The position numbers were made by a program, and so were the translations under genes. A stretch of 64,000 nucleotides of DNA. Source: a virus. Below, one piece after another: positions 31,097-56,793 of this stretch. Position 1 is the first letter of the stretch. The number at the start of each line of letters is the position of its first letter. The notes below the pieces were generated by a model, which saw nothing but the letters and a program-made list of their open reading frames with translations, did not search any database and was not told the DNA's origin. The stretch is taken from positions 27,600-91,599 of IMG/VR virus record IMGVR_UViG_3300030060_004277; one strand, given 5' to 3'.

Positions 31097-32872
31097 TTAT
31101 GCACCCCGAAACCGTCTCGCATTCATTAAAGCACGACTATTTTGCTCCTGCTGTGAGGGTTGCGCACCTCGTTGTTGAACTGAAGATATTGGAGAGCCAG
31201 AGCCAGCCACTGTTCGACGTTGAGGAGCGGCTGGTCCTCTGGGTGTTCTGATACCAACACCCTCTCCTCCGGGTTGTGAGGGTGGCATCATTTGCCTCAT
31301 CATATTCGGTGGTAGTTGTTGGTTAAGGCCAGTTGCGCCGACAGGACCACCCGGTATCGGTGGTGCCTGACCGGGTGGCATACCCATCGCACCCATGGGT
31401 GGCATACCCGGTGGCATACCCGGTGGCATACCCTGTTGCATTCCATCCTCAGGCTGTATTTTTCTGTAGGAGAACCTGATGTCCCTGTCTCCTTCCTCTA
31501 GTAATTCAGGCTTGTATCCGAGCATCTGCATCCTCTGAGCGAGGTTGACTTCCATCTCGTCTCTCCTGAGTCTGGTAATCTCGTCCTCTTCCTCATTCGG
31601 ATAGAGGGTAATCTTCCAATCCGTTATGCCCATCTCTCTTAGCATTCTTGGGAATAGTATGTCCGTGTATACCTTCTGACCGAACTCCACTGCTCTGTTC
31701 GTGACTAGAATCTGCATGCCTTCGTTGCCGAGCCCACCGCTCTTCCCGCTATCGACCATGAAGATGCTGCTAACACCATAGTAGGCTGCTATCCTGTTTC
31801 TAATCTCATCCCTGACAGCGGTGTACTGCATCTCCTCTAGGGTGTCCATGAACTTGACCCAATTCACTCCACCTCTGCCGGTCTGACTCTCAATACCGAC
31901 TTTAGGGATGTAATGAGGGTCTCTTTCCATCTTCTCATCGACCGATTTCCAGAACGACTTCATTGACTCTAGGTTGTCAGTTGTGACCGATATGATACCC
32001 TTTGGCGTCCTTCTCTTCTGGTATGCTGTGTACATGTAGTTATCCATGGCGGTCAAGGTCATCGCTTGACGCCACATAGTATTGACTGGGCTCCTGCCAT
32101 ACAGTTTGCTTGGTGAGTACTTGCTGATGTGAATGACCTCACCTTCTAGGTAATACTGGGTCTTGCCACTACCAGCCATGTTAGCATAGTGCGCATCCTG
32201 CATGTGGTTACCACACACAGTGCACTTCTCCTCCTGTCCGGGGTAGGCGATTTGGTCTCTGTGAATCGGGCAGACCTTGTACCTACCACCTCTGACTCCC
32301 CTCTTGTCTGATATGATTCTCATGAAGATGGGGTCACCGCGAATGACCTCTCTTATTCTATAGTGTTGTATCTCGCCGGTATCAGGGTCGATGTAATAAT
32401 CCTTGACGAGTATGAGGAAGGCATCATCCACGACGTTCAGGTCCTTCTCCAATTCGAACATGACTTGCATGAAACCCTGCTCCATCGAGTTCTCGCCCCT
32501 CAACAGCCATTTCGCGTATGTGGTCTGATGAGGGTCGGGTCCTCTTACCTCACCACCGCAGATATCACAGACATCCAAGTCGAATTGATACTCCTCATCA
32601 CATTCGACGCATTTCTTCTGGAACTTCTTCTCCCAGTAGTATCCTCTTCTGAAAATCTCCTGTTGAAGTTTTGAGATGACTGTCCTAAGAATCAGATTCT
32701 CGTGTGACACTGCATATAGCGCAGGTATGGTAATGCCCTGAGCCAGAACAGGCTCTTGTATGCCTGTGGTGTATAACGGCATCTGAGGCTCAGGGGTCGA
32801 ACGAATCCTGAAAGGACCCCTTATTGCGTCTATAAATCGGCCTATTGGGCCCCTCTCTGTTTCATCAGCCAT
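31097..32872 (-). CDS. Portal protein
   Basis: EVIHISKYSPSKLYGRSP, TPKGIISV, RNRIAAYYGVSSIFM; two Zn-ribbon inserts; start MADET at 32872 overlaps upstream TAA. Confidence 0.85.
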   Translation of the reverse strand: MADETERGPIGRFIDAIRGPFRIRSTPEPQMPLYTTGIQEPVLAQGITIPALYAVSHENLILRTVISKLQQEIFRRGYYWEKKFQKKCVECDEEYQFDLDVCDICGGEVRGPDPHQTTYAKWLLRGENSMEQGFMQVMFELEKDLNVVDDAFLILVKDYYIDPDTGEIQHYRIREVIRGDPIFMRIISDKRGVRGGRYKVCPIHRDQIAYPGQEEKCTVCGNHMQDAHYANMAGSGKTQYYLEGEVIHISKYSPSKLYGRSPVNTMWRQAMTLTAMDNYMYTAYQKRRTPKGIISVTTDNLESMKSFWKSVDEKMERDPHYIPKVGIESQTGRGGVNWVKFMDTLEEMQYTAVRDEIRNRIAAYYGVSSIFMVDSGKSGGLGNEGMQILVTNRAVEFGQKVYTDILFPRMLREMGITDWKITLYPNEEEDEITRLRRDEMEVNLAQRMQMLGYKPELLEEGDRDIRFSYRKIQPEDGMQQGMPPGMPPGMPPMGAMGMPPGQAPPIPGGPVGATGLNQQLPPNMMRQMMPPSQPGGEGVGIRTPRGPAAPQRRTVAGSGSPISSVQQRGAQPSQQEQNSRALMNARRFRGA

Positions 32873-34014
32873 TACAATCTCTCCTGCCACTTAGCAACGT
32901 CGTCGGCACTTACGCCCCACTCTGCGAGTAGGGTCTCGCTCTTTGCCTTGTCGTCGCTCCAGTTCGAGTACCTTACTACCCTTTTGAGTTCCTCTTTTCT
33001 CATGGAGTCATCCTCCTCAAGGAAGGCAAGCACTGCTTTTGCCTGTGTTTTCTTCATCTGTAGATGAGGCATAATCTTGTCGAGTAGTTTCCTGATATCA
33101 CCTTTGGAGTAGAACTGCAATCTGTGTTGACTCCTCTGGCTGTCCTTATACACCTTCTGGTCCAACTGAAGAACACCGCAATCAAGGACTTTTCTGAGTT
33201 CTTCGCAATGCAGCCTGCCCCTCGTACCGGTGGCAATAAACCCTGCTCGGGGCTCACCCCTCTTGGTTATGGTGATATATCCGTCAGCATCGAGGAATCC
33301 GGCAGCGTATGCATACGGGTCTTTGAGCACAAGACCGTTCTTGTCCATCTTTACGAAAGTGCCTCTCTGTGCACCGTTGACTATGTCCACCTCCTCACCA
33401 TACAATGAGAGCAGTTTGGATAGTTTGTTTGCAGTGAGACCGGGCATCTTCTCGATGTTGTCGGATTCGAAGAGTGCTCTGGCACTCATCGGCCCGTTCA
33501 TCTTCAGGAGACTAGAACACTTGGCTATCGTCTCCTGTTCCTTTTCCGTGAGTCTCGTCATCTGGGACAACGTGGACTTCCACATCTTCCTAGCATCCTT
33601 CCTCATGTTCATAGAGTCTACCCAAGCGACTCTTTCCTCATCACCCCAGACATCCTCGTGGTCTGCGAGCATCTTGAGAGTCTCCTCTCCCTTTCTCCAA
33701 AGCCTGCATGCTTTGATTAGACTGACTTTCCTAGAGTCGGAGAACTTTCTCAGAGACTTCAGACTCCTGTCGGACAAGTCAAAGTTCCTTATCTCCTTGA
33801 TGTAGTCGTTAGCCCAGTCTATCTCATTGAGAGTCATCTGCACTTCCATTGACTTGAGTGTTCGGACATCCTCAATCAGAGCGTCTATGTCCTGCTTCTC
33901 ATCCTTGTTATGCCTTCTCGCTTTCCGCAGTCTGTGCACTACGTCAGTGGCAGAGATGCCGAGGTTGTCCTCGAACCACCCTTCGCCACTCTTGGAGAAG
34001 TTGCTCATCTCCAT
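32872..34014 (-). CDS. Single-motif LAGLIDADG endonuclease-family protein with long N-terminal extension
   Basis: AYAAGFLDADGYITIT...IRKLLDKIMPHLQMKKTQA. Confidence 0.85.
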   Translation of the reverse strand: MEMSNFSKSGEGWFEDNLGISATDVVHRLRKARRHNKDEKQDIDALIEDVRTLKSMEVQMTLNEIDWANDYIKEIRNFDLSDRSLKSLRKFSDSRKVSLIKACRLWRKGEETLKMLADHEDVWGDEERVAWVDSMNMRKDARKMWKSTLSQMTRLTEKEQETIAKCSSLLKMNGPMSARALFESDNIEKMPGLTANKLSKLLSLYGEEVDIVNGAQRGTFVKMDKNGLVLKDPYAYAAGFLDADGYITITKRGEPRAGFIATGTRGRLHCEELRKVLDCGVLQLDQKVYKDSQRSQHRLQFYSKGDIRKLLDKIMPHLQMKKTQAKAVLAFLEEDDSMRKEELKRVVRYSNWSDDKAKSETLLAEWGVSADDVAKWQERL

Positions 34015-36315: not shown

Positions 36316-38607
36316 TTACTCGCCTCCAAATGCTGTCTTGACGACCTTGACGACCTTGTCGCTGTATCCGTACTTCTTGCTGATTCTGGTCCAGTCCCCC
36401 TTCGTGAAGACTATCGTGCGAACGTCGATTGGTGCTATGTCCATCTTGTGTGCCATCGTGGATATGTCAGAATTGGACTCCACGCTCATCTTTCTCTTCG
36501 GCAGGAACTTGAGGACGTCCGTGTCCTTCTTGGCATCCTCTATCTGCATCTGCTCGACGGCTTTCATCAGCCTGTCTTTCGCCACCTCTGGGCTGTCTGC
36601 TGACTTCATGTAGTCAGTGAGGAAGGTCTGGTACGGGTCGGAGATTGTCTGCTGGAACTGCTGCAACTGCTGTGGGCTGATTTGCGCTCCGGGTCTGATG
36701 CTACCGACGTCCCTCATGGTCTGCTCGACCTGCGCGGGGCTGGCTTGCGCAAAAGCCTGTCTCCTCTGTTGGAATGGTGTGAGCCTCGGGTCTACTGGGG
36801 TGGGTGATGCGACCGCCATTGGTGGTTGCGAGACAGGTGGTGGACCCCTCGGGGTTGCAGCCGGTGGGGGTCCTTGAGGTGCTCCTGCTACTGTTGGGGA
36901 TGTCTGGACCGGTTGTGCCGTAGCAGCAGGGGCTGCTCTCGATACCGAGCGGATGTGGTCAGGCACACCCATCAGGCTCTGGTCCGCCATGAAGCCGCCG
37001 ACGAGTTGGTTCGACACGACTGGCGCTAGATTGTCTATCTCCTCCTGTGATGGGTTTGCCCTCCTCGGTGTATGGCCTCTGGATATGGAGTTCATGTGAG
37101 CGAGGTACTCTATCACCCTCCTGACACTATCCACGTCACCCATCGCTTCTTCTGATGTGTTAAGTGAAAGATTAGCCTGCTCTATCTCCTCAGGCGAGAG
37201 AGCATCGTACCTGAAATTGGAATTAGCATCCGTCTCCTTGCCGACCTCTCTGGTTCCGGACATGAGCATCTTAGCCTTGATTCTAGCCGCTTGCTTCTGC
37301 GTACCTAGAGTCCTCTTTCGCCCAGTGCGCTCGTCGACAGTGCCATACACAGGTGCCCCATATCCTACGTTTTGCAGGAAGTCCTCTATCTTCTTGTCCG
37401 CCTGCTCGCCGTACCTATCCGCATAGACATCGTGAATCTGCTGGGTTATGTTTCCTTTGCGATTGGTTCTTCCGAACAACGCATGGAATGCTGGGTACTT
37501 TGCGAGTTCACCGAACAGTTCCATTCTCTCCTTGTCGTTGGAGAGGCGATATGCCAAAGGTACGCCTTTGTACTCCTCCTTGAGGTCAGTCAGTTTCATG
37601 CTCTGCTTGATTTCAGTGCCGAACTTGCTGGTATCGAGACCGAGTACGTGCTTGATGTGGTCGTTGGCTGATGAGACTATGCCTGCGCTTCCGGCTGAAC
37701 GAGTCCTTGGTAGGAAGTAGGTGTCTGGTAGATGATGTAGGATGTCCCAAGAGTACAGGTCTTTGAATGCCTTTTCATTGATTCCCATCGCATCAAAGTT
37801 CTGCGTGGATGACTGAGGCAGCCTGTCACTCCCTTGTAGATGACCAGATGGAATGTGATAAGCGCCTGACATCATGGAGTTGTCCTGCGGATTCAGGATG
37901 AAGTGCAGGTTCTCAGGCCTGATGTACGGCTTGCCAACGAAACTGAAGTCCTGTCTCGGGTTCTCGAAGCCAGCCTCCTTCATCGCCTCTTCCAACTGGT
38001 TGTGGAAGGGTATGGAGTATGACTCTAGGAATGTGCCGTATTTGTGATTCTGGCCGTGGCTGTTGGTCGTGGTGGTGATGAGCCTTCCCTCTGGTCCGTA
38101 GTTGCCCCTGTTCATGACGTCTCTCTGGTACGGACCGACGACGAGTTTTCTCCACATCATGCTGTCAGCGTCCGGTAGGTGGTTCTTCTCATCCGGATGT
38201 GCGGTGTTGTATCTGTCTATGGCACTCTGAACTATCTGCTTGGGGTCACCCCGCATTCCGTTTCTGACCATCGCCTCTCCGATTCTCCGGATGACACCGT
38301 CGACACCGTGAAGATGCTCACCGCCAGATTCGTCCTTGTAGACTATCTCACCGTGATTTCCTCTGACGAAACCGCCCGGAATCACCTTTCCGACACCGGG
38401 TATCCCAGTCTCCTGCTCACCGTGCGCACCCGTATGGGCGAATGCTGGCACGTCTGGTTGGTTCGGGTCGTCATTGTGAGCATCAGCAGGTGGGTATCTC
38501 TGGATGTGGTAACCACCACCGAAGAGGGCGAAGTTGCCGTCTCCCTTGATGAGCAGGTCACCCATCTTCCTGATTACGTAGGACTTTCGGATGACTCCTA
38601 CTCTCAA
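36316..38607 (-). CDS. 763-aa hypothetical (possible internal/ejection protein)
   Basis: Long ORF; N-terminal VIRKS/YVIRKM/LLIKG; Pro/Gln linker; helical C-terminal domain. Confidence 0.7.
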   Translation of the reverse strand: MRVGVIRKSYVIRKMGDLLIKGDGNFALFGGGYHIQRYPPADAHNDDPNQPDVPAFAHTGAHGEQETGIPGVGKVIPGGFVRGNHGEIVYKDESGGEHLHGVDGVIRRIGEAMVRNGMRGDPKQIVQSAIDRYNTAHPDEKNHLPDADSMMWRKLVVGPYQRDVMNRGNYGPEGRLITTTTNSHGQNHKYGTFLESYSIPFHNQLEEAMKEAGFENPRQDFSFVGKPYIRPENLHFILNPQDNSMMSGAYHIPSGHLQGSDRLPQSSTQNFDAMGINEKAFKDLYSWDILHHLPDTYFLPRTRSAGSAGIVSSANDHIKHVLGLDTSKFGTEIKQSMKLTDLKEEYKGVPLAYRLSNDKERMELFGELAKYPAFHALFGRTNRKGNITQQIHDVYADRYGEQADKKIEDFLQNVGYGAPVYGTVDERTGRKRTLGTQKQAARIKAKMLMSGTREVGKETDANSNFRYDALSPEEIEQANLSLNTSEEAMGDVDSVRRVIEYLAHMNSISRGHTPRRANPSQEEIDNLAPVVSNQLVGGFMADQSLMGVPDHIRSVSRAAPAATAQPVQTSPTVAGAPQGPPPAATPRGPPPVSQPPMAVASPTPVDPRLTPFQQRRQAFAQASPAQVEQTMRDVGSIRPGAQISPQQLQQFQQTISDPYQTFLTDYMKSADSPEVAKDRLMKAVEQMQIEDAKKDTDVLKFLPKRKMSVESNSDISTMAHKMDIAPIDVRTIVFTKGDWTRISKKYGYSDKVVKVVKTAFGGE

Positions 38608-40463
38608 GGCGTTCGTCCTCCCCTACTGGTGTAAACTCCAATGGGGTCCATGCCGAACGTGCGCGGTTCGTTGTTCGCGTCTTCGGTAGCACCCTCTGGT
38701 CGAGTGGTCTGCTTTGGACCATTCTCTGGGTTCTTTGGAAGATTCGAGCCAGCGCCTGCTGTGTCTTTAGTGCCCATTCCCTTCTTCTTGCTCTCCTTCT
38801 GCCTGATTGCTCTCTTAGTATCAGCGAGGAGTTGCCTGAGTTCTATGATATCGTATCGAGTAAGTTTCTTCTGTATCTCGCTACCCTCACCTATGGGTCC
38901 GGTCATCACGCCTTGGACCGATGAAGATGGTAGCCTGCCGGGTCTCATCATGGGTGGTGCGGCCATCTGCTGTACACCGACACCTGCTGTTGGCATCGGC
39001 GCGGGCGGGGCACCCGGCATGGGTGGTGGAGTTGGCATTGTTGGTCTCGGTGGCATGGTGGGAGGCATTATCGGTGGTATCCTGTGTGGCTTGAGAGCAG
39101 GTCTTCTAGGTCTTTGCACACCTTGTAGTCTACCCCCACCAGTCGGACCGGCAGTATATGAGCGAGTACCGAACCTTGCTGGAGTCGATGCCACTGTTCT
39201 GACACCACCTAGTCTCTTTCTGCTCTCCTGCTGACCCATGTATTGCCTGTACTTCTGAGGGTCCTTCGACGTGGGCTGCTTGGTCTGCACACCACGGTGT
39301 GACATTTCGACTGCTAGGTGAGAGCGACCAAGACCTGTCTTCTGGCCGCTCTTTATTCCCCTGCTTCTCGCTTTTGCCCTTCTGGAAGTGGCGGATGCTG
39401 GATTGACGCCACCGGGTGGCATCTTGAATTGACCAGTCGAAGGACGGAATTTTTTGCCTCTTTCCTTCTTCTCCTTCTTCTCCTTGCTCTTGTCGCTTTT
39501 ATCCTTTTTAGGTTCGGGGTTTTTGTCTGGCACGAAGCCTTGAGCCTCTTCCTTGAGTATCTGGAATGCGATTTTCATCGACTCTCCGGTTTGAACTCTG
39601 TTGCCTTGCATAGTCAGGTACTTTTCTCGCTCCTCCGGTGGTATGTCGATTGAGCCGGGTTTGTCCATTGTGGGATGTATGTTCTGCTCCATATCGCGTA
39701 TCTGACTCATGATTCTCTCACGCTGCTCATCGGATACTTTTCTCTTGTCGGGTAATTCAGGTGGCATGTTTGGACTCATGTCCATCCTAGTGTCTCCGGG
39801 TATCATCGGCTTTCCATACGGCATGGTCGGGTCACCGATGACTGGCTCTTCCGGGGCTACCGGTAGGTCATTAGGGTTGAATGGTACTGGTTTTGCTTGC
39901 TGTTGCTCCGTAGTGGCACTGATGTTCCGTGGCTTTGGTGCTGGTCTCTGCTGCCTGACCTTGCCGAATCTCATTGTTCTAGGAGGCGCTCTGCTGCTTT
40001 TTCCCCCACCGCCTCTTCTTGGGGCTGCTTTGAGAATATCAGACCAAGCCTCTTCCATCGGCTCTCCCATGGCAACCATCTCCCCACCAGCGGCACCGGG
40101 ACCTCTGGCTTGGTTCGCTAGACTCGTTAGGAAGCCGAGATTGCCGGGTGGACCGGTCTGTGCGGATATCTCTCGCTCTTGGTCTCTCTTGTCGGCATCA
40201 TCCTCGCCTTCCTCCTCCTCATCCTTGAAACCCTCTAGGTCGCTTGCTCTGACCTTGATGTGCTTGACTTTGCTCATGAGACGCCTTCGGGCTCTGTCCT
40301 TCTCCCTCTTTTTATCCATCTTGGCATCTTTGTTCTTGCCATCCTCAGCACCGTGGCGGTCCTCCTCGTTGTTGTTGACGTACATGTGCGAGGATTCGCT
40401 TCGTGGATTGTAGATTCTGGTATCGCTACCAGTGCCCATGCCGCCTGTTCCCTGTGGCATCAA
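38604..40463 (-). CDS. 619-aa low-complexity Pro/Arg/Lys-rich protein
   Basis: Long ORF; contains GEPMEEAWSDILKA and GESMKIAFQILKE. Confidence 0.7.
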   Translation of the reverse strand: MMPQGTGGMGTGSDTRIYNPRSESSHMYVNNNEEDRHGAEDGKNKDAKMDKKREKDRARRRLMSKVKHIKVRASDLEGFKDEEEEGEDDADKRDQEREISAQTGPPGNLGFLTSLANQARGPGAAGGEMVAMGEPMEEAWSDILKAAPRRGGGGKSSRAPPRTMRFGKVRQQRPAPKPRNISATTEQQQAKPVPFNPNDLPVAPEEPVIGDPTMPYGKPMIPGDTRMDMSPNMPPELPDKRKVSDEQRERIMSQIRDMEQNIHPTMDKPGSIDIPPEEREKYLTMQGNRVQTGESMKIAFQILKEEAQGFVPDKNPEPKKDKSDKSKEKKEKKERGKKFRPSTGQFKMPPGGVNPASATSRRAKARSRGIKSGQKTGLGRSHLAVEMSHRGVQTKQPTSKDPQKYRQYMGQQESRKRLGGVRTVASTPARFGTRSYTAGPTGGGRLQGVQRPRRPALKPHRIPPIMPPTMPPRPTMPTPPPMPGAPPAPMPTAGVGVQQMAAPPMMRPGRLPSSSVQGVMTGPIGEGSEIQKKLTRYDIIELRQLLADTKRAIRQKESKKKGMGTKDTAGAGSNLPKNPENGPKQTTRPEGATEDANNEPRTFGMDPIGVYTSRGGRTP

Positions 40464-40912
40464 GCATCAACTCCAGCGTATTTCAAGCAGTAATCGAAGG
40501 TCTTGTGCCCTAGTCTCATGTAGAAGTCAGCGGCGACTGACTCGTTGATTATGCAACTAGCCATATCCTCGCACAGGTCTCTGAACTTAGTTGCTGATTC
40601 CTTGATTTCCTGCCTGAGAGGGAGTATCTCGCTTGGCTCATCTGTCTCAGACATCCTGTCGAGAGCCGCAAGCACATCAGTGAGACACATCATAGTGATG
40701 TGCTCATGATTCCTATTGGCATAGAACTTGAACCTTTTACACACGATGACGCAGTATTCCATGAAGAGAGGGAGTTCATCATACACGTCGATGTTATCAG
40801 TTTGAAGTAAACGAAAACCCGGATGGGAGACCTGCATGAGGTCTATGGTTCTGACCATCATTGCTTCATACCCTCCACTTGCTCCTGCAATTGCGCTTTG
40901 ATTCTCTTCCAA
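40460..40912 (-). CDS. Hypothetical helical protein
   Basis: 150 aa (probably starts MMVRT at ~40861); coupled to neighbours. Confidence 0.6.
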   Translation of the reverse strand: MEENQSAIAGASGGYEAMMVRTIDLMQVSHPGFRLLQTDNIDVYDELPLFMEYCVIVCKRFKFYANRNHEHITMMCLTDVLAALDRMSETDEPSEILPLRQEIKESATKFRDLCEDMASCIINESVAADFYMRLGHKTFDYCLKYAGVDA

Positions 40913-41577
40913 CTCTCCGGACTCTCCTTTGCTAGTTCCACTTTAAGGATATTAATTGTGTTATTGACCTGAGCACCCTCACTGGTGGTACCCCATGTGG
41001 TCTGTAGCCTGACTAGGTCTTTCAATGACTCTCTCACTTCCTTGTGTAGTGAGACTGCGTTTCTGATGAAACCCTCCTCGTGCACGGATGACTCGCTCAT
41101 GAGTTCGTCAAATTTCGAGTTCAGCCTTTCGAGATTGCTTCTCATGACGTTTGCTTCTTGTCCTACTGTGATTGCTACCTCAGTCGCTGCTGATTTCTGC
41201 ACTAGGGGCTGGAAGTGGAACTTCATGTGGTGGTGAACTGACTCCTCTTTGATGCCTAGTTCCTCTGCGATTAGTTCTGATTCCGCTCCATTGGAGAAGA
41301 ATCTGTGCTCGAAAGAGGCACGATTGGTATGAGTGCACAGGACACATGATGGATTAGACGCCATGTGATACTGACCCATGTGATTTCTGAAGTGCCGGTC
41401 TGCTGTATTGGCTCTCCAACCCATCTCCTTGTCTATCCTCATGCAGGTTGTTTCACCGTTCTTGAGAGATTCCTCTAACTCATCTCTCTGCTCGCTTGTG
41501 CAGAAGGGACACGACCGTTTTACGACTGGCTTGCGCTCAACCACGATGGTGCCGTATAGGGAGGCGGCAATTAACAT
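40858..41577 (-). CDS. Terminase small subunit candidate with tandem CxxC-HTH-HxxxH units
   Basis: CPFC...RHFRNH and CVLCTH...IAEELGI...HHHMKFH, followed by coiled coil and NNTINIL; upstream of TerL. Confidence 0.55.
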   Translation of the reverse strand: MLIAASLYGTIVVERKPVVKRSCPFCTSEQRDELEESLKNGETTCMRIDKEMGWRANTADRHFRNHMGQYHMASNPSCVLCTHTNRASFEHRFFSNGAESELIAEELGIKEESVHHHMKFHFQPLVQKSAATEVAITVGQEANVMRSNLERLNSKFDELMSESSVHEEGFIRNAVSLHKEVRESLKDLVRLQTTWGTTSEGAQVNNTINILKVELAKESPESWKRIKAQLQEQVEGMKQ

Positions 41578-41584
41578 TGCCTAA

Positions 41585-41836
41585 TTAGAACCGCGTAATC
41601 CTATGGTATACTGACGTCAAGAGAAAAAGAGAGAGAAATACCCCTACTACCATCATGGTCATCTCCGACTGGTTGATTTCATTTGCCTTGAACAGGAGTA
41701 TGCCGACGAATATCACTATGGCGCTGATGAGTTGAACCATCACCATATCGACTATGACGCTTCTCTTGGGAGCGAGCATCTGCATCGACATGTCTGCGAA
41801 CTGCCTTGGTATTGGTATCGCACCGCCGTTCATCAT
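41585..41836 (-). CDS. Small two-TM membrane protein
   Basis: MVMVQLISAIVIFVGILLF and MMVVGVFLSLFLLTSVY. Confidence 0.75.
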   Translation of the reverse strand: MMNGGAIPIPRQFADMSMQMLAPKRSVIVDMVMVQLISAIVIFVGILLFKANEINQSEMTMMVVGVFLSLFLLTSVYHRITRF

Positions 41837-42510
41837 TATGCCCTACCTCCGAACATTAGGTTCCTCATGAACGAGCCACCCGCCTCAGCAGCGCCTTGCA
41901 TCATACCGGGGTCAGCCATAGCAGTTTGAAGTGCCCCTTGCAACATGCTTGACTCGGCTCTCTGCATAGTCTGCATCCTTAGTGTGTCAGCGTTGCTGAC
42001 TGCACCATTGACGTCATTCTGTAGACCGCTCATCTGAGCCATGATATTCTCAGGACTCATGGTCTGGAGTTGGGTTGGTAGCGATGTTGGGTCCAGTTTG
42101 AAGACGCCTAGTTCATCATCGAAGTTGAAGGATGCCTCTTTCAAGACGTTCAGGATTGAGAAGGTCATCATCTGTCCGAGTATATCTAAAACCAGATTGA
42201 AAGTGTTGCTCTGGACGAACCTCTCCACTGGCAACTGTGTGTTGAGCATGGTAACTAGAATCTCAGTCTCACTGGGTGGCATCATGCCATTCTGTGCGTA
42301 TTGCGGGTCCATACCAGTAGCACTACCTAGGAACGCTGACATTAGATTGGGTTGCTGTTGTTGCGCGTACCAGTTGTTTGCTGGTGCTGAGTATCCATTA
42401 CCCATCATGGAATTACCCATACTAGCACCCATACCCATCGGGGCACCGGTCATTGATAGATTGAGGGCATTACCACCAGTTGATGGCTGTTGATTACCAT
42501 AGCCCATCAT
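41836..42510 (-). CDS. Met/Gly/Gln-rich hypothetical protein
   Basis: 224 aa, low-complexity N-terminus, amphipathic C-terminus. Confidence 0.7.
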   Translation of the reverse strand: MMGYGNQQPSTGGNALNLSMTGAPMGMGASMGNSMMGNGYSAPANNWYAQQQQPNLMSAFLGSATGMDPQYAQNGMMPPSETEILVTMLNTQLPVERFVQSNTFNLVLDILGQMMTFSILNVLKEASFNFDDELGVFKLDPTSLPTQLQTMSPENIMAQMSGLQNDVNGAVSNADTLRMQTMQRAESSMLQGALQTAMADPGMMQGAAEAGGSFMRNLMFGGRA

Positions 42511-43518
42511 CTACTGCACACCCTCCGCTGTTTGATTGGGAGTGGGGGTGCTCACTTGAGTCTGTTGGTTGACTAGGGCTTGTGGTGGTGTCTGCTGCAT
42601 TTGCGCTGCTTGCTGCATCAAAACCTCTTGGAAGGCTTGAGTCGGTGTCTTCATGTCGAGTAGTTCCTTCTGGAACATCCTGTTATCGAAAGTGATGACC
42701 GTGAGGTCGTTCTCCTCGGTCTCTGGATTCGCGTAGAACTGGACACTTATGCCCTTGCTCCTTCTGGAATCCGCCATAATCTCAGCGAAGAAGGGTTCGT
42801 ACTTGTCTACCAAAGGATGTTGTGGTCCGGTGTCTGTACCAGCGAGAGTTGCTACCGGGACTGAAACTAGACTGACTCCCTTTCGCATCTTGTCTCTGAA
42901 TCGACTGGGTTTCATCTCTGCCTCCGCTTCCTCTTGTTCCTCCCATTTCCTAAGTAGGTGATACAAGTGCAGATGCTCTGGGCAGTATGTCCCTCTCATC
43001 TTTCGACCGCTAGTCACGCCTTCCCTTGCTACGAATGCCTCTGCTTCTCCTGTGATTGGGTTTTGCCAGTAGAGTTCCCACAGCGACTTGCCTGTCTCAT
43101 CATCGCAGATTTTGGCGTATAGATTATCATGTTGTATCAGGTCTTTGACATTGCAACCGTCTATCACGCATGTTCCTGTGTCCTTAGAATACCTATAGGG
43201 ACTAAGCCTCAACCATCTTCTAGGGTCTAATATTGACCTTTTTGTCGGTTTTAGTAGTCTGTAAGCCTGCTTGATGTCCTGCCTTCTGGCTTTTCTGGGG
43301 TCAGGATGCCTTGAAGGGTAGAAATTGACTTTTGGTACCTCGATGTTCTTCTCCATGGCAACTTTCTGCATTTGCTGTTGTGCAGCCTGTTGCTCTAGTA
43401 ATGCACCGTGCGTGAATTGTGGATTGCCTTGTTGCGCCATGGCCATCAAAGCGGCCTCGTTCATCTGCCCAATGCTCTGTTGATTGTTCACGTAGAATGG
43501 ATTTAAGTTGTTCATCAC
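42511..43518 (-). CDS. Gln-rich protein with putative metal-binding core
   Basis: 335 aa; CVIDGC...YCPEHLH; Q-rich termini. Confidence 0.7.
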   Translation of the reverse strand: MMNNLNPFYVNNQQSIGQMNEAALMAMAQQGNPQFTHGALLEQQAAQQQMQKVAMEKNIEVPKVNFYPSRHPDPRKARRQDIKQAYRLLKPTKRSILDPRRWLRLSPYRYSKDTGTCVIDGCNVKDLIQHDNLYAKICDDETGKSLWELYWQNPITGEAEAFVAREGVTSGRKMRGTYCPEHLHLYHLLRKWEEQEEAEAEMKPSRFRDKMRKGVSLVSVPVATLAGTDTGPQHPLVDKYEPFFAEIMADSRRSKGISVQFYANPETEENDLTVITFDNRMFQKELLDMKTPTQAFQEVLMQQAAQMQQTPPQALVNQQTQVSTPTPNQTAEGVQ

Positions 43519-43521
43519 CGC

Positions 43522-43743
43522 TTACTCCCCCTTACCCTCCGGACATACACGAATTATCATGGTTTCTCCCTCAACCCTCAATTCCCACTCTATTTTGTCT
43601 CCAGTGGACAAGTCGAACTGCTTTACTATCCAAGAAGGGACAGTAGTACGTAGAGAACCAGTGCCTGTGGAAGTCAAAGAAGTCCTTGTGACACTCCTAC
43701 CCATGCCACTCCGAGTGGGCCACACACCAAAAAGGTCACTCAT
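43522..43743 (-). CDS. AbrB/SpoVT-like DNA-binding protein
   Basis: GSLRTTVPSWIVKQFDLSTGDKIEW swapped-hairpin pattern. Confidence 0.75.
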   Translation of the reverse strand: MSDLFGVWPTRSGMGRSVTRTSLTSTGTGSLRTTVPSWIVKQFDLSTGDKIEWELRVEGETMIIRVCPEGKGE

Positions 43744-43753
43744 GAGGTCACTT

Positions 43754-44470
43754 TCAATAGTTCATCATGTCGAATAGTGTTTGTTCGACGTTCCAGCCTA
43801 TTCTAGTGGCCATAAAAGCACGTCTAGTGGGAACCCCCGCTTTCTGTAAGCGAATCAAATCATCTCTGAACGGGTCGAAAATTTTGTGCTCGCCTATTCT
43901 CCCTTGTTGCCAGAGCACTGCTGCCTTGTCATCGAAGAACCTATCAGCCTTATTCGCCACTAGCAACAGTTGCTTTGGTGCGTACTTCTTTCCCTTCCAC
44001 CAACTCTTGACGTTTCTGTATCTGTAGTTGCGAAAGAGTATAGCATCGACTAGATACTTGAATCCAGCAACCTGCTGAAGAGCATCGTCACCACCCTTGA
44101 AGGCGCGGTCATCGAACATGAAGATAATGAACTCGCATTGCCTCGCTACCATGTCATCCACCCAAAGGTTCCAGAATCTGTCCTCACCACCTATGTCAGA
44201 GGAATGAACGACTCTTCTCTCACCCTGCCAACGTAGTCTTTTGCGAGTTGGTTTGGGCAGAATGTATCGAGTGAGGAGTTTGAAGTGGTTTGTCCTCTCC
44301 TCGAGAGGAATCTCTTCCATCTCACCGGGGGTGGTCATGTACCTGTCGAGAGTGGTCTTGCCGACCATTGATGCCCCGTAGATACCGACACGTCTGGATT
44401 TCCAGTTATTGTATATCTGCTGGCCCCAAAGCGCTGCGCCAACTAATGCACTCCCTGCCATCGCCGCCAC
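43754..44470 (-). CDS. Arf/Sar1-like small GTPase
   Basis: G1 GASMVGKT, G3 DIGGE followed by RFWNLW, FIIFMFD, G4 LVANKAD, G5-like MAT...NVEQTLF; N-terminal hydrophobic/amphipathic helix. Confidence 0.85.
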   Translation of the reverse strand: MAAMAGSALVGAALWGQQIYNNWKSRRVGIYGASMVGKTTLDRYMTTPGEMEEIPLEERTNHFKLLTRYILPKPTRKRLRWQGERRVVHSSDIGGEDRFWNLWVDDMVARQCEFIIFMFDDRAFKGGDDALQQVAGFKYLVDAILFRNYRYRNVKSWWKGKKYAPKQLLLVANKADRFFDDKAAVLWQQGRIGEHKIFDPFRDDLIRLQKAGVPTRRAFMATRIGWNVEQTLFDMMNY

Positions 44471-44481
44471 GGGCTATCACC

Positions 44482-44781
44482 TCAGGACACTAAGCCAACT
44501 AACCAGTTTGCAAATCTCTGGACCTGCTCAAGACCCCAGTTCACAGTCAACTCCCAAAGGCTGATGTCAGTCCAGTAGTACTCTGCGGCTGAGATGCCTA
44601 GCATACCAGCAGCAGTGAAAAGAAGAGTTCGTACCCATCCTATACCCCACTCATAGGTATTATCGACCGTATTCGCCATGTGCATGGCTCTGAGAGTCTC
44701 CTCTACGGAATCATCAGCGACGTTTCTAAACAGTCTGGGGCCTTTTATTCCGGGTATTCCGAGTATTCCGGGTAGCGGCAT
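44482..44781 (-). CDS. Small membrane protein
   Basis: GIGWVRTLLFTAAGMLGISAAEYYW TM plus amphipathic C-terminus. Confidence 0.7.
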   Translation of the reverse strand: MPLPGILGIPGIKGPRLFRNVADDSVEETLRAMHMANTVDNTYEWGIGWVRTLLFTAAGMLGISAAEYYWTDISLWELTVNWGLEQVQRFANWLVGLVS

Positions 44782-45377
44782 CAGTTACCGCCACGCTTGG
44801 CCTTGTACCTTAAGTCTGGCGACCCATCCTTCTTTCTAGGGATGTCTTCTCTGATTAACTCATCAGCCATGGCGTTCAGACCCAAGTCCAAGGGCTGCGA
44901 TTCTGATGCCTGATGGGTCGGTATGCCCGGATTGAAATTGCTATGGTAGTCAGTCGCTAGACCGGAGAAAGCGCCACTATTGAATGACGGGGACACTTTG
45001 TCTGGATTCTCAGCCATCCAACGGAGTTCGTTCTCCAACTGTGCTTCCTGCAATCTCATCTCCAAATCCATTCTTCTCTGGTCGAATCCCATCTGCTGTT
45101 GCCTTATCGTCTTCGTCCTTTGATTCTGCATCTCTGCCATTTGCACTCTCTCTTGCATCTGCTGCTCGAAGAACATCTTGAAGAAATAGTATGCTATTGT
45201 CTGTACAGCCAATGCACCCATGGAATACGTCATTCCATTTACCCAAGAGTCTCCAGCGGAGCCAGCGGGTAGCCATATACCGGCGTCATAGACACCGACA
45301 GCCACTCCAACTAGCGCAGATTGGGCTAAGATTAGCCCTGTCATCTTCATATCTTGCGAACCTTCATTCAACTTCAA
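44781..45377 (-). CDS. Two-TM plus coiled-coil membrane protein
   Basis: LILAQSALVGVAVGVY, YSMGALAVQTIAYYFF, Q/R/M coiled coil, C-terminal PRKKDGSPDLRYK. Confidence 0.75.
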   Translation of the reverse strand: MKLNEGSQDMKMTGLILAQSALVGVAVGVYDAGIWLPAGSAGDSWVNGMTYSMGALAVQTIAYYFFKMFFEQQMQERVQMAEMQNQRTKTIRQQQMGFDQRRMDLEMRLQEAQLENELRWMAENPDKVSPSFNSGAFSGLATDYHSNFNPGIPTHQASESQPLDLGLNAMADELIREDIPRKKDGSPDLRYKAKRGGN

Positions 45378-45469
45378 TCACCTCTGACCTCGTATCTGGC
45401 ACATAGGGTGCCATCATAAGGGTTGTGACCAGAAAGCCGACCTGTAATGTCTAAAAATTCTAATGTATT

Positions 45470-45507
45470 GTCTATACATATAGTTATATTTATTTATAGG
45501 TATAGAC
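45470..45507. promoter_or_regulatory. AT-rich 13-bp inverted repeat upstream of GTPase operon
   Basis: GTCTATACATATA-N12-TATAGGTATAGAC (12/13 match) in the intergenic gap upstream of the operon. Confidence 0.5.
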
Positions 45508-45535
45508 GTTTATTAAGAATAATCGGAATCAAGCA

Positions 45536-48468: not shown

Positions 48469-48593
48469 TTCGCGGCGGCGCAAAGGACGTCGGAGAGATT
48501 GTAATAAGGTCAATAATCGAGGCAATCGTCAAAGTCATGTTCATGGGTCTGATAATCCTCTGGGGCATAGCAACAGCAATCAACGGACTCTAG
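48465..48593 (+). CDS. 42-aa membrane peptide (not in ORF track)
   Basis: MIRGGAKDVGEIVIRSIIEAIVKVMFMGLIILWGIATAINGL; ATGA-coupled to upstream ORF; stop overlaps the hmgL stop. Confidence 0.6.
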   Translation: MIRGGAKDVGEIVIRSIIEAIVKVMFMGLIILWGIATAINGL

Positions 48594-49441
48594 TGCTTTA
48601 TCCTCTTCTCGACGTACTGGGTCACCGTGCCTAGGTCCTCGGGCCTGACCCCGCAATCGAGTCCCTCGTCATTTGACCACTTTACGAGGTCCTCAGTGGA
48701 CAGATTACCACCACTACCCGGTACAAATGGACAACCGCCCATACCACCTATGCTGCTGTCGAACTGCCTGATGCCCAAGTCGAACGCCGTGCTGAGGTTG
48801 TCGAACATCCTATTCTTCCTCGGTCCGTGATGGAGGTGCAATGCGAGGTCCGCTGTGATTCCAATGCCCCTCGTCAGGTTGACGGCGCTTCGAATCAGCA
48901 TGGGGTCCGCCGAACCGATGGTGTCCGATAGGACGATGGTGCTACCAAGCGAGTCTGCCCACCGCAGTGCTTTCTCCATCTGGTCGTGCTGTACGCTTCC
49001 GACATAGGGACAACCGAACATGCAACTGAGGTAGACCCTGATGTTCTCCTTGGGTATCCCATCCAACGCCGAGCAGTACTCGGTGAATATCTGGTTGCTC
49101 ATCTTACCATGGTTGTTCATGTTGAAACTCTCGCTAGGGGAGAAGAACACGTTGAAGTTCTCGACCCCGATTTTTTTGGCCCTCTCCACCCCTACTTTAT
49201 TGGGCACGAGCATCGCCAATTCGCAGTCATACTGCAAATGCGGCAGTTGCTTGAACAGAATGTCCGAGTCCGCCATGTTTGGCACCTTCTCGGGGTTGAC
49301 GAGCGAGCCGACTTCGATGTTGCGAATGCCGGACATGGCAATCTCCTCGATGAGTTCGACCTTGACCGCTGTGGGCGTTATCGTGTCATGGCTCTGGAGA
49401 CCATCTCGCGGACCGACCTCGTAAATCTCAAAGTCGTACAT
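48590..49441 (-). CDS. hmgL: Hydroxymethylglutaryl-CoA lyase
   Basis: EVGPRDGLQ, FGCPY, LSDTIG, LHLH, FDSSIGGMGGCPFVPGSGGNLSTEDL. Confidence 0.9.
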   Translation of the reverse strand: MYDFEIYEVGPRDGLQSHDTITPTAVKVELIEEIAMSGIRNIEVGSLVNPEKVPNMADSDILFKQLPHLQYDCELAMLVPNKVGVERAKKIGVENFNVFFSPSESFNMNNHGKMSNQIFTEYCSALDGIPKENIRVYLSCMFGCPYVGSVQHDQMEKALRWADSLGSTIVLSDTIGSADPMLIRSAVNLTRGIGITADLALHLHHGPRKNRMFDNLSTAFDLGIRQFDSSIGGMGGCPFVPGSGGNLSTEDLVKWSNDEGLDCGVRPEDLGTVTQYVEKRIKH

Positions 49442-54040: not shown

Positions 54041-54430
54041 ATGATTGAGATGAATTATGAACAAGCAAGAGAGATAATGAAGACAGCAAGGAACCCTGTG
54101 AAGGGCAAGCCGATTGGGAACAACACACGGTTGTATGACAACGATGGGTACTACACCATCAGGTTGCACAACCATGTCATCATGGAGATATACCCTGATG
54201 GCTTCATCCCATTGGATGCGGGGTGGCGGACAGTCACCACGAAAACAAGACTGAATGAGCACATGCCCATTGGTTATCTACACCAAAAGAAATGGCATTG
54301 GTACTTTACCATCGGTGATACAACCTACGATTGGAAAGATGTGTACTTCGTCAGCACGCACCCTGAACATCAGGATGACCCAGTGGTGACCGAGGGAGAC
54401 TACCGTGCATCCAAGGAGATGGTACAATGA
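54041..54430 (+). CDS. Conserved viral hypothetical protein (GW.T.TTK.RLN motif)
   Basis: NNTRL...IRLHNHVI...AGWRTVTTKTRLN. Confidence 0.7.
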   Translation: MIEMNYEQAREIMKTARNPVKGKPIGNNTRLYDNDGYYTIRLHNHVIMEIYPDGFIPLDAGWRTVTTKTRLNEHMPIGYLHQKKWHWYFTIGDTTYDWKDVYFVSTHPEHQDDPVVTEGDYRASKEMVQ

Positions 54431-56766
54431 ACGCACAAGAGATGCACATGATTGTGAAGAAGTTCGTATCCTACGGTGCGCCTGATGCTTACGACGGGCA
54501 AGGTCCGAACAAGTTTGATTGGGACTTCTTGGAGAGGATGTCGCACAGGGATGAACTGAATGCAGAGCAGATACACAGGTGTGCTGAGAGACTGAGAAAG
54601 TACAGGAACACACAGATGCCGAGGGCATTCAGCGAGTGTGGACTGACCATGCCTGACGATTGGGATGCTATGGTGGAGGAGTTGTCGGTAGTGTCGGCGG
54701 AGACGGCTGACCTCATCACCTTCAAGGAGATTGAGACATCCTTCTGGTCCAACAAATACAACAAGAACTTCACCAACAACAGGCTCGCAGTACAATGGTC
54801 TGGGCACCGGAGTGAATTGTACCTTGACCTTAAGAACAAAGTGTCGTTCCCGGAGTTTCAATATCAGCCTGACTATGGTATGCACTTCAAGAGAGACAAG
54901 GATGTCATACTCAAGGGAGCGGGTATCATGGCACAGCATGGACTCAAGGTTGCTGACTTGGTTCTGTATGCCAATGGGTTGGACGATACCCCTGCTCGCA
55001 AGAAGGAAGAGTATGCAGTACGCATCGAGGGAGATGCCGTAGCCATCATGGTACCCTACGATGAGGTGAGGACGAGGGAGATAGTCAAGGCCACCAACAA
55101 CAGGAAGTGGTTGAAGGGTACGAAGGAGTGGGCTGTGCCCATGGTTGAGACCATCCACCTGATAAACAGGCTTGGGCCTGAGCATCCACTCACCGTCATC
55201 ATGGATGCCATGCCTGAGTTGAAGGAAGCCAACAAGGTGAGGGCGGAGCGCATCAGCATCAGCGGTGCCTCATCCCTGAGCGATGAAGACATCGTGGCTG
55301 ACATGAAGGAGAGACTAGACCGAGAGTTCCCCGAGGGGCATGAGTTGTATCCCTTTCAGTATGCAGGTGTGCGCTTCGCTGAGTTGGCTGATGGCAAGGC
55401 AATCATCGGAGATGACATGGGGATAGGCAAGACCATCCAAGCCATCGCCTACTGTGTCTTGCATCAGGAGCACTGGCCTGTGCTGGTGGTCTGTCCTGCC
55501 AACGTCAAGTACAATTGGCTCAAGGAGTTGAAGGCGTGGTTGCCCCAGCACCCTAGTGATGTGGTTGTCAACGGCAAGGATGAGGTACGTGATGCTGACT
55601 TCACCGTCATCAACTACGACCTGATGAGCAAGAAGCAAGGCGAACTCATGGCCGTGGGGTACAAGACCATCATCATGGATGAGTGCCACTACCTGAAGAA
55701 CCAGAAGGCCAAGAGGACTCAAGCCACAGTCGCATTGGCTCAACAGTGTGAGAGCATCCTCGCTCTCAGTGGTACTGCAATCACAAACAGACCAGTGGAG
55801 TTGTTCAACACACTGAACATGGTCAGGCCAGCGGAGTACTCTAACTTCTTCCAATACGCTATGCAGTACTGCGGTGCGCATCAGAACTCATGGGGGCACT
55901 GGGACTTCACCGGTGCTACCAACATCGATGAGTTGCATTCCAAACTGAGGGATGTGATGATTCGCAGGCTGAAGAAGGAGGTACTGGAGGAACTACCGGA
56001 CAAGATACGACAGTTCGTACCAGTCACACCTACCAGCGCAGAGATGACTGACTACAAGAAGTACGCAGCCAAGTGGCTGAGGGACTACGAACAGCACAAG
56101 GTGAACAACGACATGCCAGCGGGGTTCGTTCTCAACATGCTGACCAAACTCAGGCACAAGTGTGGTAGGCTCAAGGTGAGCGCTGCGCTTGACTGGGTCG
56201 CTGAGTACAGGGACATCACTGACAACAAGCCTGTCATCATCTTCACTCACCACAAGGATGTGAGTGCATCCCTCATCGAGGGACTGAATGATGACAAGAG
56301 ATTCGCTGGCACGAGATGGGGTAGAATAACCGGTGATGTGGCATCGCAGAAGAGGCAAGAGATGGTGGACTTGTTCCAATCAGGTGCGCTTGATGGTCTG
56401 GTGTGTAGCACACAGGCAGCGAAGGAAGGACTGACACTCACAGCAGCGGACACTGTGGTGTTCATCGAGCGTGAGTGGGTGCCCGGATGGGAGGAGCAAG
56501 CCGAGGATAGGGTGAACAGGATTGGACAGGACAGTGACACGGTGTGGGCTACCTACCTGTCTGTCGCTGGTACTATCGATGAGAGATTCGATAGGGTCGT
56601 CGAGCAGAAGAGAGAGGTAGTGTCCGCTGTGCTTGACGGTGGTGATATGGAGATGAGGCAGGGCCTTGCAGTGGCACTGCTTGAGGCTATGGTGGAAGCA
56701 GGTGAGATGCCTGCGGACATGCTTCAGAACATAGGTGTGGCCAAGTCACACTTCGAGGAGGAGTGA
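54427..56766 (+). CDS. SNF2-family (SMARCAL1/HARP-like) helicase
   Basis: GDDMGIGKT, VVCPA, DECH, LSGT, RRLKKEVLEELP, QAEDRVNRIGQ. Confidence 0.92.
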   Translation: MNAQEMHMIVKKFVSYGAPDAYDGQGPNKFDWDFLERMSHRDELNAEQIHRCAERLRKYRNTQMPRAFSECGLTMPDDWDAMVEELSVVSAETADLITFKEIETSFWSNKYNKNFTNNRLAVQWSGHRSELYLDLKNKVSFPEFQYQPDYGMHFKRDKDVILKGAGIMAQHGLKVADLVLYANGLDDTPARKKEEYAVRIEGDAVAIMVPYDEVRTREIVKATNNRKWLKGTKEWAVPMVETIHLINRLGPEHPLTVIMDAMPELKEANKVRAERISISGASSLSDEDIVADMKERLDREFPEGHELYPFQYAGVRFAELADGKAIIGDDMGIGKTIQAIAYCVLHQEHWPVLVVCPANVKYNWLKELKAWLPQHPSDVVVNGKDEVRDADFTVINYDLMSKKQGELMAVGYKTIIMDECHYLKNQKAKRTQATVALAQQCESILALSGTAITNRPVELFNTLNMVRPAEYSNFFQYAMQYCGAHQNSWGHWDFTGATNIDELHSKLRDVMIRRLKKEVLEELPDKIRQFVPVTPTSAEMTDYKKYAAKWLRDYEQHKVNNDMPAGFVLNMLTKLRHKCGRLKVSAALDWVAEYRDITDNKPVIIFTHHKDVSASLIEGLNDDKRFAGTRWGRITGDVASQKRQEMVDLFQSGALDGLVCSTQAAKEGLTLTAADTVVFIEREWVPGWEEQAEDRVNRIGQDSDTVWATYLSVAGTIDERFDRVVEQKREVVSAVLDGGDMEMRQGLAVALLEAMVEAGEMPADMLQNIGVAKSHFEEE

Positions 56767-56773
56767 TGAAGAC

Positions 56774-56793
56774 TTGACTATAAAAGGGAATAG
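56774..56793 (+). promoter_or_regulatory. Early element copy 4
   Basis: Exact 20-mer. Confidence 0.8.

Follow-up and report, generated by a model that had tools for sequence, protein, structure and literature searches.

Seven co-oriented open reading frames (ORFs) on the minus strand of a virus genome, at positions 41585–45377 of the stretch analysed here, include a gene for a small GTPase that resembles the Arf family. The stretch, called the window below, is 64,000 nucleotides (nt) long and consists of bases 27600–91599 of a 91.6-kb IMG/VR virus record (IMGVR_UViG_3300030060_004277), which represents a tailed archaeal virus of ~92 kb. Five of the seven genes, the GTPase gene among them, are referred to as the cassette; they keep their order in three virus lineages and may encode a membrane-bound GTP switch that acts late in infection.

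Organization of the gene block

In the direction of reading, the block begins with a gene for a membrane protein of 198 amino acids (aa; 44781–45377, cassette gene 1) and one for a small hydrophobic protein of 99 aa (44482–44781, cassette gene 2), both taken from the ORF list and characterized by hydrophobicity. The gene for the Arf-like small GTPase follows (238 aa, 43754–44470, cassette gene 3; motifs, profile and model), and next to it lies a lineage-specific insert encoding a SpoVT/AbrB-type (MazE-like) DNA-binding protein (73 aa, 43522–43743; Pfam PF04014). Cassette gene 4 encodes a Cys/His protein (335 aa, 42511–43518) identified by its conserved core and by synteny, and cassette gene 5 a Met/Gly/Gln-rich protein (224 aa, 41836–42510) recognized by its composition and an ENI motif. 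The last gene, again lineage-specific, encodes a protein of 83 aa with two transmembrane (TM) segments (41585–41836; hydrophobicity). The successive gaps are -1, 11, 10, 3, 0 and -1 nt, and the original prediction, a reading of the bare sequence that described seven tightly packed co-oriented genes here, was correct in every coordinate.

The same reading called the block an operon, for which a 5´ limit is plausible. Upstream of the first cassette gene, on the same strand, is an AT-rich intergenic region of 158 nt with a TATA-like box, CCTATAAATAAATAT (45378–45535, read from the sequence). It is the only sizeable gap in the block and we infer it to be a candidate archaeal promoter. The 3´ limit of the operon, on the other hand, is arbitrary because the next ORF begins only 7 nt past the seventh gene and the tight, co-oriented packing goes on. 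Scans for consensus promoters and terminators of the bacterial type gave sites no more numerous than in shuffled sequences.

Motifs and fold of the GTPase

Motifs and modelled fold show that the 238-aa product is a genuine small GTPase. Its AlphaFold (AF2) model, with a predicted local distance difference test (pLDDT) score of 88.7, has the six-stranded sheet and five helices of the G-domain fold, and the motifs listed in the original prediction (GASMVGKT, DIGGEDRFWNLW, FIIFMFD and LLLVANKAD) are present at the expected residues. The G1 motif or P-loop, GASMVGKT, comprises residues 32–39 (44354–44377; this and all features of the protein are on the minus strand). G3 and switch II, DIGGEDRFWNLW, are encoded at 44162–44197 and align with the Arf-type DxGG(Q)...LW signature; the catalytic position is occupied by Glu96. 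The G4 motif NKAD, for guanine specificity, comprises residues 173–176 (43943–43954), and ATR (43802–43810), which aligns with the SAx position and was assigned by its place in the fold, is the probable G5 motif. Conservation was read from an alignment of 20 family members, in which G1 (GxxxxGKT), G3 (DxGG) and G4 (NKxD) are all kept. Within G3, DIGGE corresponds to residues 92–96, of which D92 and G95 never vary; W103 is nearly invariant and follows D92 by eleven residues, the spacing of Arf1. The region of switch I is lengthened to ~34 residues between the P-loop helix and Thr75 (44249–44350; alignment and model), carries conserved TTPGE and RTxH motifs, and is presumably longer than in Arf proteins.

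The replacement of the catalytic Gln by Glu, pointed out at first reading, is confirmed for this protein but is only a variant of its clade. Across the family, Gln is the commonest residue at the position (80 sequences), followed by Glu (63), His (7), Asp (5) and Ala (1). Such variation, together with Glu in the window protein itself, could indicate a pseudo-GTPase that binds nucleotide or nothing and serves as a scaffold only. We give this explanation little credence. The P-loop, DxGG and NKxD are retained throughout the family, the GTPase is the most conserved gene of the block, Gln predominates at the very position in question, and the Q61E variant of Ras still hydrolyses GTP.

Two further features set the protein apart. 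First, a helix is predicted at residues 2–23 (44402–44467; model and hydrophobicity). Residues 1–16 form an uncharged Ala/Gly/Val/Leu stretch that is evenly hydrophobic (hydrophobic moment ~0.1), and only residues 14–24 are amphipathic (moment ~0.4), as an aromatic amphipathic turn followed by the basic residues KSRR. The claim of a helix similar to the amphipathic one of Arf at this end finds little support. The first 17 residues contain a median of 1 charged residue across 117 homologues as against 4–5 in Asgard ArfR proteins, and the N-terminus looks more like a short anchor than like an Arf-type amphipathic helix; it is likely that the helix is a membrane anchor. Residue 2 is Ala, in agreement with the reported lack of Gly2. 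The residue, which is N-myristoylated in Arf proper, is missing in Arl8 and ArfR too (bioRxiv 10.1101/2024.02.28.582541), and membership of the wider family does not depend on it. Second, a family-specific polybasic and aromatic insertion, LFRNYRYRNVKSWWKGKKYAPK, is found between helix 3 and strand 5 (43973–44038; composition of homologues). Its 22 residues have medians of 8 K/R, 0 D/E and 5 aromatic residues across 127 homologues, compared to 2–3 K/R and 4 D/E in the matching segment of three Asgard ArfR. The insertion may provide a second surface that binds membrane or nucleic acid.

Relatives of the GTPase

The GTPase family is found in hundreds of marine contigs. Close homologues number 469, part of which have been labelled automatically as 'GTPase SAR1 family protein' (JGI). 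By sequence, the family appears to be virus-specific: the 78 matches at E ≤1e-3 among 1.84 billion cluster representatives all come from the viral family, many of them as fragments and none as a classical GTPase, and the ESM Atlas clusters of the family itself are 82–100% viral. A tblastn search of 50,697 phage records with the GTPase found nothing. In a scan of genome collections, the only finds were two 8-kb contigs (L086 and L087) with a GTPase 70–71% identical to that of the window, binned into a Maricaulis metagenome-assembled genome (MAG) and a 'Promethearchaeati' (Asgard) MAG. We considered these as evidence on the host and rejected them, taking both as viral contigs mis-binned into MAGs.

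The affinity to known GTPases is seen with profiles and structures rather than with single sequences. A phmmer search of the PDB with the single GTPase sequence returned nothing at E up to 10, and the NCBIfam models gave no match at E up to 0.1. The Pfam Arf model (PF00025, cut-off 22.3 bits) does not match the window protein at E up to 1 and matches just 5 of 20 family members (best E 0.0048); MMR_HSR1 is matched weakly by 6 of the 20. The Roc model reached E 0.012 and 16.2 bits against a cut-off of 27, and a Roc-COR (ROCO) GTPase was discarded as a candidate, the protein ending with the G domain and leaving no room for COR. When the family profile was run against the PDB, the best match was GerdArfR1 (8OUN, E 1.1e-5), followed by Arl8A/B (~3e-4), Rab33B (5e-3) and KRas (0.03). 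The entries 8OUN and 8OUM are of GerdArfR1, an Asgard Arf GTPase (bioRxiv 10.1101/2024.02.28.582541). Among structural matches to the model, the top 19 are all Arf-family chains; MglA and Sar1 are not among the 50 best matches listed, which does not exclude either.

A similar picture emerges from a panel of 30 small GTPase paralogues of one Asgard MAG, scored with a hidden Markov model (HMM) of the viral family. The three best (22–26 bits) are the three true ArfR of the panel (139–149 bits with Pfam Arf). The 'GDxxVGK' Ras/Rab-like paralogues reached at most 12 bits; one outlier, which has a GLGSVGKT P-loop, reached 21.9. In a tree with this Asgard panel as the only reference, the viral sequences form a single clade (support 100/99), whose stem of ~2 changes per site joins between the Arf-like and the Ras/Rab-like groups. 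A clade of the viral family with the three true ArfR was not rejected (approximately unbiased (AU) test, p 0.27). The original prediction of an Arf/Sar1-like GTPase agrees with these nearest relatives, Arf by profile and by modelled fold; it does not extend to a score above the Pfam Arf cut-off or to a placement inside Arf in the tree. The protein is best described as Arf-like by profile and fold, and as a candidate member of the Arf family proper. After the viral clusters, the nearest named ones in the ESM Atlas are bacterial Arf-like clusters (PF00025, mostly Pseudomonadota; language-model scores 0.94–0.95) of similar length (204–248 aa), which are a lead only; HMMER did not find them at E ≤1e-3.

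Conservation of the cassette

The gene order is identical in 80 of 80 related IMG/VR loci, from the gene for the 198-aa protein through four genes past the seven, and because of this recurrence the arrangement is not due to chance. The GTPase is the best conserved of the proteins, with 68–96% identity across the 80 loci compared to 33–60% for many of the neighbours. The Cys/His, the Met/Gly/Gln-rich and the 83-aa proteins were each detected in all 80 loci, the 198-aa and the 99-aa proteins in 78 each, and the AbrB-like protein in 69.

Collinearity within one group of viruses is weak evidence, and distant lineages were therefore compared. Two were found in which the GTPase is 33–39% identical to that of the window, so that we distinguish three lineages: that of the window (lineage 1, the 80 loci), in which the cassette is upstream of the packaging genes; lineage 2 (L082 and L085; representative GTPase P0128, 36% identity), in which it lies just downstream of a thermosome gene; and lineage 3 (L128, L159 and L186, ~140 contigs; representative P0147, 33%), in which it is placed between the capsid and tail tube genes. 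Searches with P0129, P0163 and P0168 yielded no viral contigs. In lineage 2, the cassette opens with a homologue of the 198-aa protein (E 4e-6 and 2e-9) and a small protein of 72–79 aa. The GTPase comes next, and its stop codon overlaps the start codon of a gene whose product is homologous to the Cys/His protein of the window (E 7e-40 and 2e-20). In lineage 3, the order is a 2-TM protein laid out like the 198-aa protein, a hydrophobic protein of 73–74 aa, the GTPase, a protein with three Cys and a Gln-rich protein. The three-Cys protein comes directly after the GTPase and is weakly similar to the window Cys/His protein (E 1e-5 to 4e-4). In both distant lineages, the small protein encoded immediately before the GTPase (72–79 aa) has the layout of the 99-aa protein with marginal sequence similarity. 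The Gln/Met-rich proteins of the two lineages (237–272 aa) take the place of the 224-aa protein and share with it an ..ITQENID.. motif in which ENI is invariant.

Five genes make up the conserved core and move as a unit; they encode the GTPase and the 2-TM, small hydrophobic, Cys/His and Gln/Met-rich proteins. Outside this core, the genes for the AbrB-like protein and the 83-aa 2-TM protein are lineage-specific additions. Five loci of lineages 2 and 3 were read; in these, no ORF is present between the GTPase and Cys/His genes and no 83-aa 2-TM gene was seen after the cassette; the genes that follow the cassette in lineage 2 have no similarity to those of the window. Synteny across related genomes, proposed at the outset as a check, is found both in the 80 loci and in the lineages with a distant GTPase, so that the refuting outcome named along with it did not arise. 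The seven-gene module proposed at the same time is reduced to five genes that keep their order in three lineages.

Some details of the distant loci may be added. The Gln/Met-rich proteins of lineage 2 (L085:9534–10274 and L082:9487–10305) end in long alternating runs of Gln and Met. The gene just upstream of the cassette in the same lineage encodes a thermosome (Cpn60_TCP1) protein (L082:5250–6785 and L085:4820–6481; E 1e-133 to 1e-140), and thermosome genes are a known trait of magroviruses (PMC5434244). In L128 (4689–14928) the whole cassette lies between a gene matching SU10_MCP (E 2e-8) and a Phage_tube_2 tail tube gene (E 2e-23).

The position of the cassette brings up the possibility that it serves the morphogenesis of the virion or a membrane site of assembly and packaging, with the GTPase timing or placing the assembly of head, neck or tail, or with its proteins carried in the virion. 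It always lies in the late arm among structural genes: in the window it immediately precedes the packaging genes, and in lineage 3 it separates the genes for the major capsid protein (MCP) and the tail tube protein. The neighbouring late genes encode small proteins of unknown role. Yet the internal order is kept while the place relative to capsid, tail and terminase genes shifts, and membrane proteins are generally not expected in a tailed virion. Moreover, HVTV-1 builds its virion from homologous MCP and portal proteins and has no such GTPase gene, even by profile search; because it shares capsid and portal and lacks the cassette, the latter is not needed to build this type of virion. A role in morphogenesis is in our estimate unlikely. 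Genomic position does not discriminate between egress and morphogenesis, because lysis cassettes of the P2 and lambda types likewise sit among or before structural genes.

The partner proteins

The 198-aa protein has hydrophobic segments at residues 12–30 and 52–70, one strong and one weaker (Kyte-Doolittle 1.71 and 1.11), followed by a helical stretch rich in Gln, Met and Arg, which to the eye resembles a coiled coil, and a polar tail. The 99-aa protein has one moderately hydrophobic segment (residues 47–65; 1.36). The segments that led to their description as 2-TM and 1-TM proteins are accordingly present, but the second segment of the former is weaker, and the single one of the latter more moderate, than the description implied. 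The 83-aa protein fits its description well: both of its hydrophobic segments are strong (Kyte-Doolittle 2.77 and 2.03), and the C-terminus is short and basic.

The 335-aa protein has a basic conserved core at approximately residues 55–300, containing C117, C122, C179, H182 and H187, between Gln-rich tails, and is probably metal-binding. No known family or fold was found for it. Prediction of a complex between its core (residues 55–300) and the GTPase gave scores of 0.00 and 0.14 against a mark of 0.32, which is no verdict. The 224-aa protein (11.6% M, 10.7% G and 8.9% Q) has a helical core with the invariant ENI motif. The 73-aa protein passes the Pfam model MazE_antitoxin (PF04014, SpoVT/AbrB-type; E 1e-5, 25.8 bits against a cut-off of 24.7), which upholds its early assignment as an AbrB-like regulator.

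The AbrB-type gene inside the block, the basic core of the Cys/His protein, the polybasic insertion and the weak MMR_HSR1 matches in 6 of 20 family members are the grounds for an alternative in which the GTPase is a switch of the Era/MMR_HSR1 kind, linked to nucleic acid or the ribosome and working with the Cys/His and AbrB proteins, with the membrane proteins as unrelated neighbours. We regard this as very unlikely: structural and profile matches favour the Arf family, the AbrB gene is missing in many relatives, and in each of the three lineages the GTPase is accompanied by both membrane proteins.

Searches for lysis families in Pfam and PHROG returned none at a useful E in the seven genes or in 13 flanking ORFs, in line with the observation at first reading that no holin/endolysin pair can be recognized. 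The best lysis-family match was an Rz-like spanin of PHROG at E 0.04, to the 83-aa protein. Judged from its sequence, this protein would be holin-like in size and topology only; holins are very diverse, and one recognizable by topology alone may have escaped the family search. Families of defence and counter-defence gave no useful match either.

The virus and its setting

The head genes of the window, all on the minus strand, encode an HK97-type capsid protein (21730–22866), a prohead protease, a portal protein and the large terminase. In the 50,697-record phage collection, MCP and portal matched only archaeal tailed viruses, namely HVTV-1, HCTV-1 and HCTV-5 of Haloarcula and viruses assigned to methanogens, and because of this we place the virus in the magrovirus type. 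Magroviruses are viruses assigned to Marine Group II archaea (Poseidoniales), and the pattern of capsid and portal matches seen here has been described for them. The window also carries two magrovirus traits, an SNF2 helicase, reported in magrovirus group A (PMC5434244), and HMG-CoA lyase (HMGCL), a magrovirus auxiliary metabolic gene (PMC10160649). The former is encoded, together with an ArdC-like protein, in the opposite-strand arm of the window. The HMGL-like (HMG-CoA lyase) gene is found at 48590–49441 on the minus strand, amid small late genes (Pfam E 1.2e-17).

Comparison with known systems

The closest comparison is with the Arf family (Arf1/Arf6, Arl1, Arl6 and Arl8; the ArfR proteins GerdArfR1, 8OUM/8OUN, and HodArfR1, 8OUK). 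The switch II of the viral protein, DIGGEDRFWNLW, fits the wDvGGQxxxRxxW signature apart from Glu for Gln. In other respects the viral protein differs. At 238 aa it has a longer G4–G5 region (Arf proteins are shorter, at ~180 aa), and to this are added the lengthened switch I and the polybasic insertion before strand 5. The P-loop is GASMVGKT and not GLDxAGKT, Gly2 is lacking, and the N-terminal helix is uncharged and hydrophobic instead of amphipathic. The protein scores below the Pfam Arf cut-off, joins the tree on the Asgard panel between the Arf-like and the Ras/Rab-like groups, and is encoded with orphan partners and not with Sec7 or ArfGAP proteins.

The functional precedent closest to the cassette is known from Haloferax, where ArvA, an Arf-like GTPase with an N-terminal helix, drives vesicle formation with ArvB and the Zn-ribbon protein ArvC, encoded in one operon (PMC10927574). 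ArvA, ArvB and ArvC are found in Haloferax volcanii, other Euryarchaeota and DPANN, and the Zn-binding partner has been proposed as a GTPase-activating protein (GAP; PMC10927574). The statement in the original prediction that Arf-like GTPases are usually a matter of eukaryotes and Asgard archaea has to be revised in view of this euryarchaeal analogue. The viral system shares with that of ArvA an Arf-like GTPase that begins with a hydrophobic helix and is encoded in a small operon with conserved partners, in a setting of archaea other than Asgard. It is unlike it in that ArvB (PF09846) is lacking and the partners share no detectable family. The ArvB domain OapB (PF09846) had no match in the 91.6-kb virus record, with positive controls in Haloferax volcanii and Methanosarcina acetivorans, and because it is missing from the virus the cassette is not the ArvA system.

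In Euryarchaeota, the release of vesicles is under the control of host GTPases of the ArvA type (PMC10927574). A viral mimic could take over such a process, and the cassette might then be a device for takeover or exclusion at the host membrane, through a block to superinfection, shedding of receptors in vesicles, interference with division or vesicle traffic, or counter-defence. This reading has the membrane-linked features of the cassette in common with that of a membrane-bound GTP switch, and an AbrB-type regulator is inserted in the window lineage. On the other side, the location in the late arm, co-oriented with structural genes, argues against an early role, known defence and counter-defence families are not matched, and no host homologue was detected among the 1.84 billion representatives, so that mimicry is unsupported by sequence. 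We consider takeover distinctly unlikely.

Membrane anchoring of small GTPases takes several forms. In Sar1, a rather hydrophobic N-terminal helix inserts in the membrane and activation is by the membrane-anchored Sec12; SR-beta has a true N-terminal anchor. The combination of a TM protein and a GTPase with a hydrophobic N-terminus in the virus is reminiscent of the logic of Sar1/Sec12 and SR-beta. The cassette resembles holin cassettes, too, in its small membrane proteins in the late region near structural genes, with the 83-aa protein of holin-like size and topology; it is unlike them in having a GTPase and two soluble orphan proteins in its core and the holin-like gene outside it. To our knowledge, no described lysis cassette contains a GTPase and soluble orphan proteins. 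A holin system has been proposed for Poseidoniales viruses of the order Adrikavirales (PMC11706807).

A possible GTP switch at the host membrane

We tentatively favour a reading of the five-gene cassette as a membrane-bound GTP switch for a late change of the membrane, and hold it to be a little short of probable. The GTPase would cycle as a GTP switch on the cytoplasmic membrane of the host, held there by its uncharged hydrophobic N-terminal helix and perhaps also by the polybasic insertion. The two membrane proteins could locate or activate it, as Sec12 does for Sar1, with the 198-aa protein as receptor or activator. In its GTP state, the GTPase would recruit the Cys/His protein as an effector or a GAP-like factor, and the Gln/Met-rich protein, which might self-associate into a layer. 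The outcome would be a timed change of the host membrane late in infection.

The favoured form of this change, doubtful as it is, would be weakening or vesiculation of the membrane for release of virions. No lysis genes were recognized in the seven genes and the 13 flanking ORFs. Phage lysis cassettes often precede terminase genes or sit between head and tail genes. One intriguing possibility goes further, namely that the five genes are a complete, virus-owned coat-type machine of the Arf/Sar1 kind that vesiculates or ruptures the membrane of Marine Group II cells; we think this unlikely. Its parts would be a receptor or activator pair in the membrane, a GTPase whose helix inserts there, a GAP or effector of the Zn type, and a layer of self-associating Gln/Met-rich protein.

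Several points weigh against the membrane switch. The N-terminal segment is short (~16 residues), is below a simple threshold for TM segments and could pack onto protein. The hydrolysis mechanism would be hard to read from a catalytic residue that varies among Q, E, H, D and A. The partner proteins are of no known family or fold, so that roles as guanine nucleotide exchange factor (GEF), GAP or effector would be assigned by analogy. A role linked to nucleic acid would also suit the polybasic insertion, the AbrB gene and the basic character of the Cys/His protein, and the constant location of the cassette in the structural arm, once between capsid and tail genes, fits morphogenesis too. The host of the window virus, Poseidoniales, is inferred via the literature, and the region occurs in marine DNA metagenomes only, with no RNA run listed for it.

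Magroviruses reportedly rank with the most abundant viruses in the surface waters of the ocean (PMC11706807, PMC5434244). For the exit of tailed archaeal viruses, a review of 2024 names just 'VAP-independent disruption' (VAP, virus-associated pyramid), without a mechanism (PMC10791045). The word GTPase does not occur in two papers on magroviruses (PMC5434244, PMC10160649) and one on Poseidoniales viruses (PMC11706807). As a conserved, mobile and apparently virus-specific unit, the cassette is a concrete and clonable candidate for exit from a cell free of peptidoglycan, and its GTPase adds a viral case to the Arf-like switches known from eukaryotes, Asgard archaea and haloarchaea (ArvA). A coat-type machine, if true, would give tailed archaeal viruses an egress mechanism not described before, and would mean that a membrane system driven by a GTPase had originated apart from eukaryotes and Asgard archaea.

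Other features of the window

Directly after the seven-gene block, a 239-aa protein is encoded (40858–41577, minus strand) that has CxxC pairs and weak matches to helix-turn-helix or DNA-binding domains (PHROG E 7e-4 to 2e-3). A small terminase and a late regulator are possible identities for this protein, which is present in 80 of 80 related loci with 56–99% identity. Another protein, of 619 aa and rich in Pro, Gly and Lys (38604–40463, minus strand; 11.6% P, 10.5% G and 8.7% K), is encoded between cassette and terminase. It is apparently disordered and has no family match; all 80 related loci keep it, too. A 380-aa ORF between the large terminase and portal genes (32872–34014, minus strand) has a weak LAGLIDADG_3 match (E 0.004), and in HVTV-1 the terminase gene is flanked on both sides by genes for HNH endonucleases.

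The start of the window cuts into a single open frame of at least 3979 aa (2–11938, minus strand), which lies downstream of the tail genes and has the size of a giant tail or tape-measure-like protein. In the opposite-strand, early arm (54427–57763, plus strand), the SNF2-family helicase (E 1e-34) is followed by a protein with ArdC-N and zincin metallopeptidase domains (E 2e-27), which together form a pair of the anti-restriction type.

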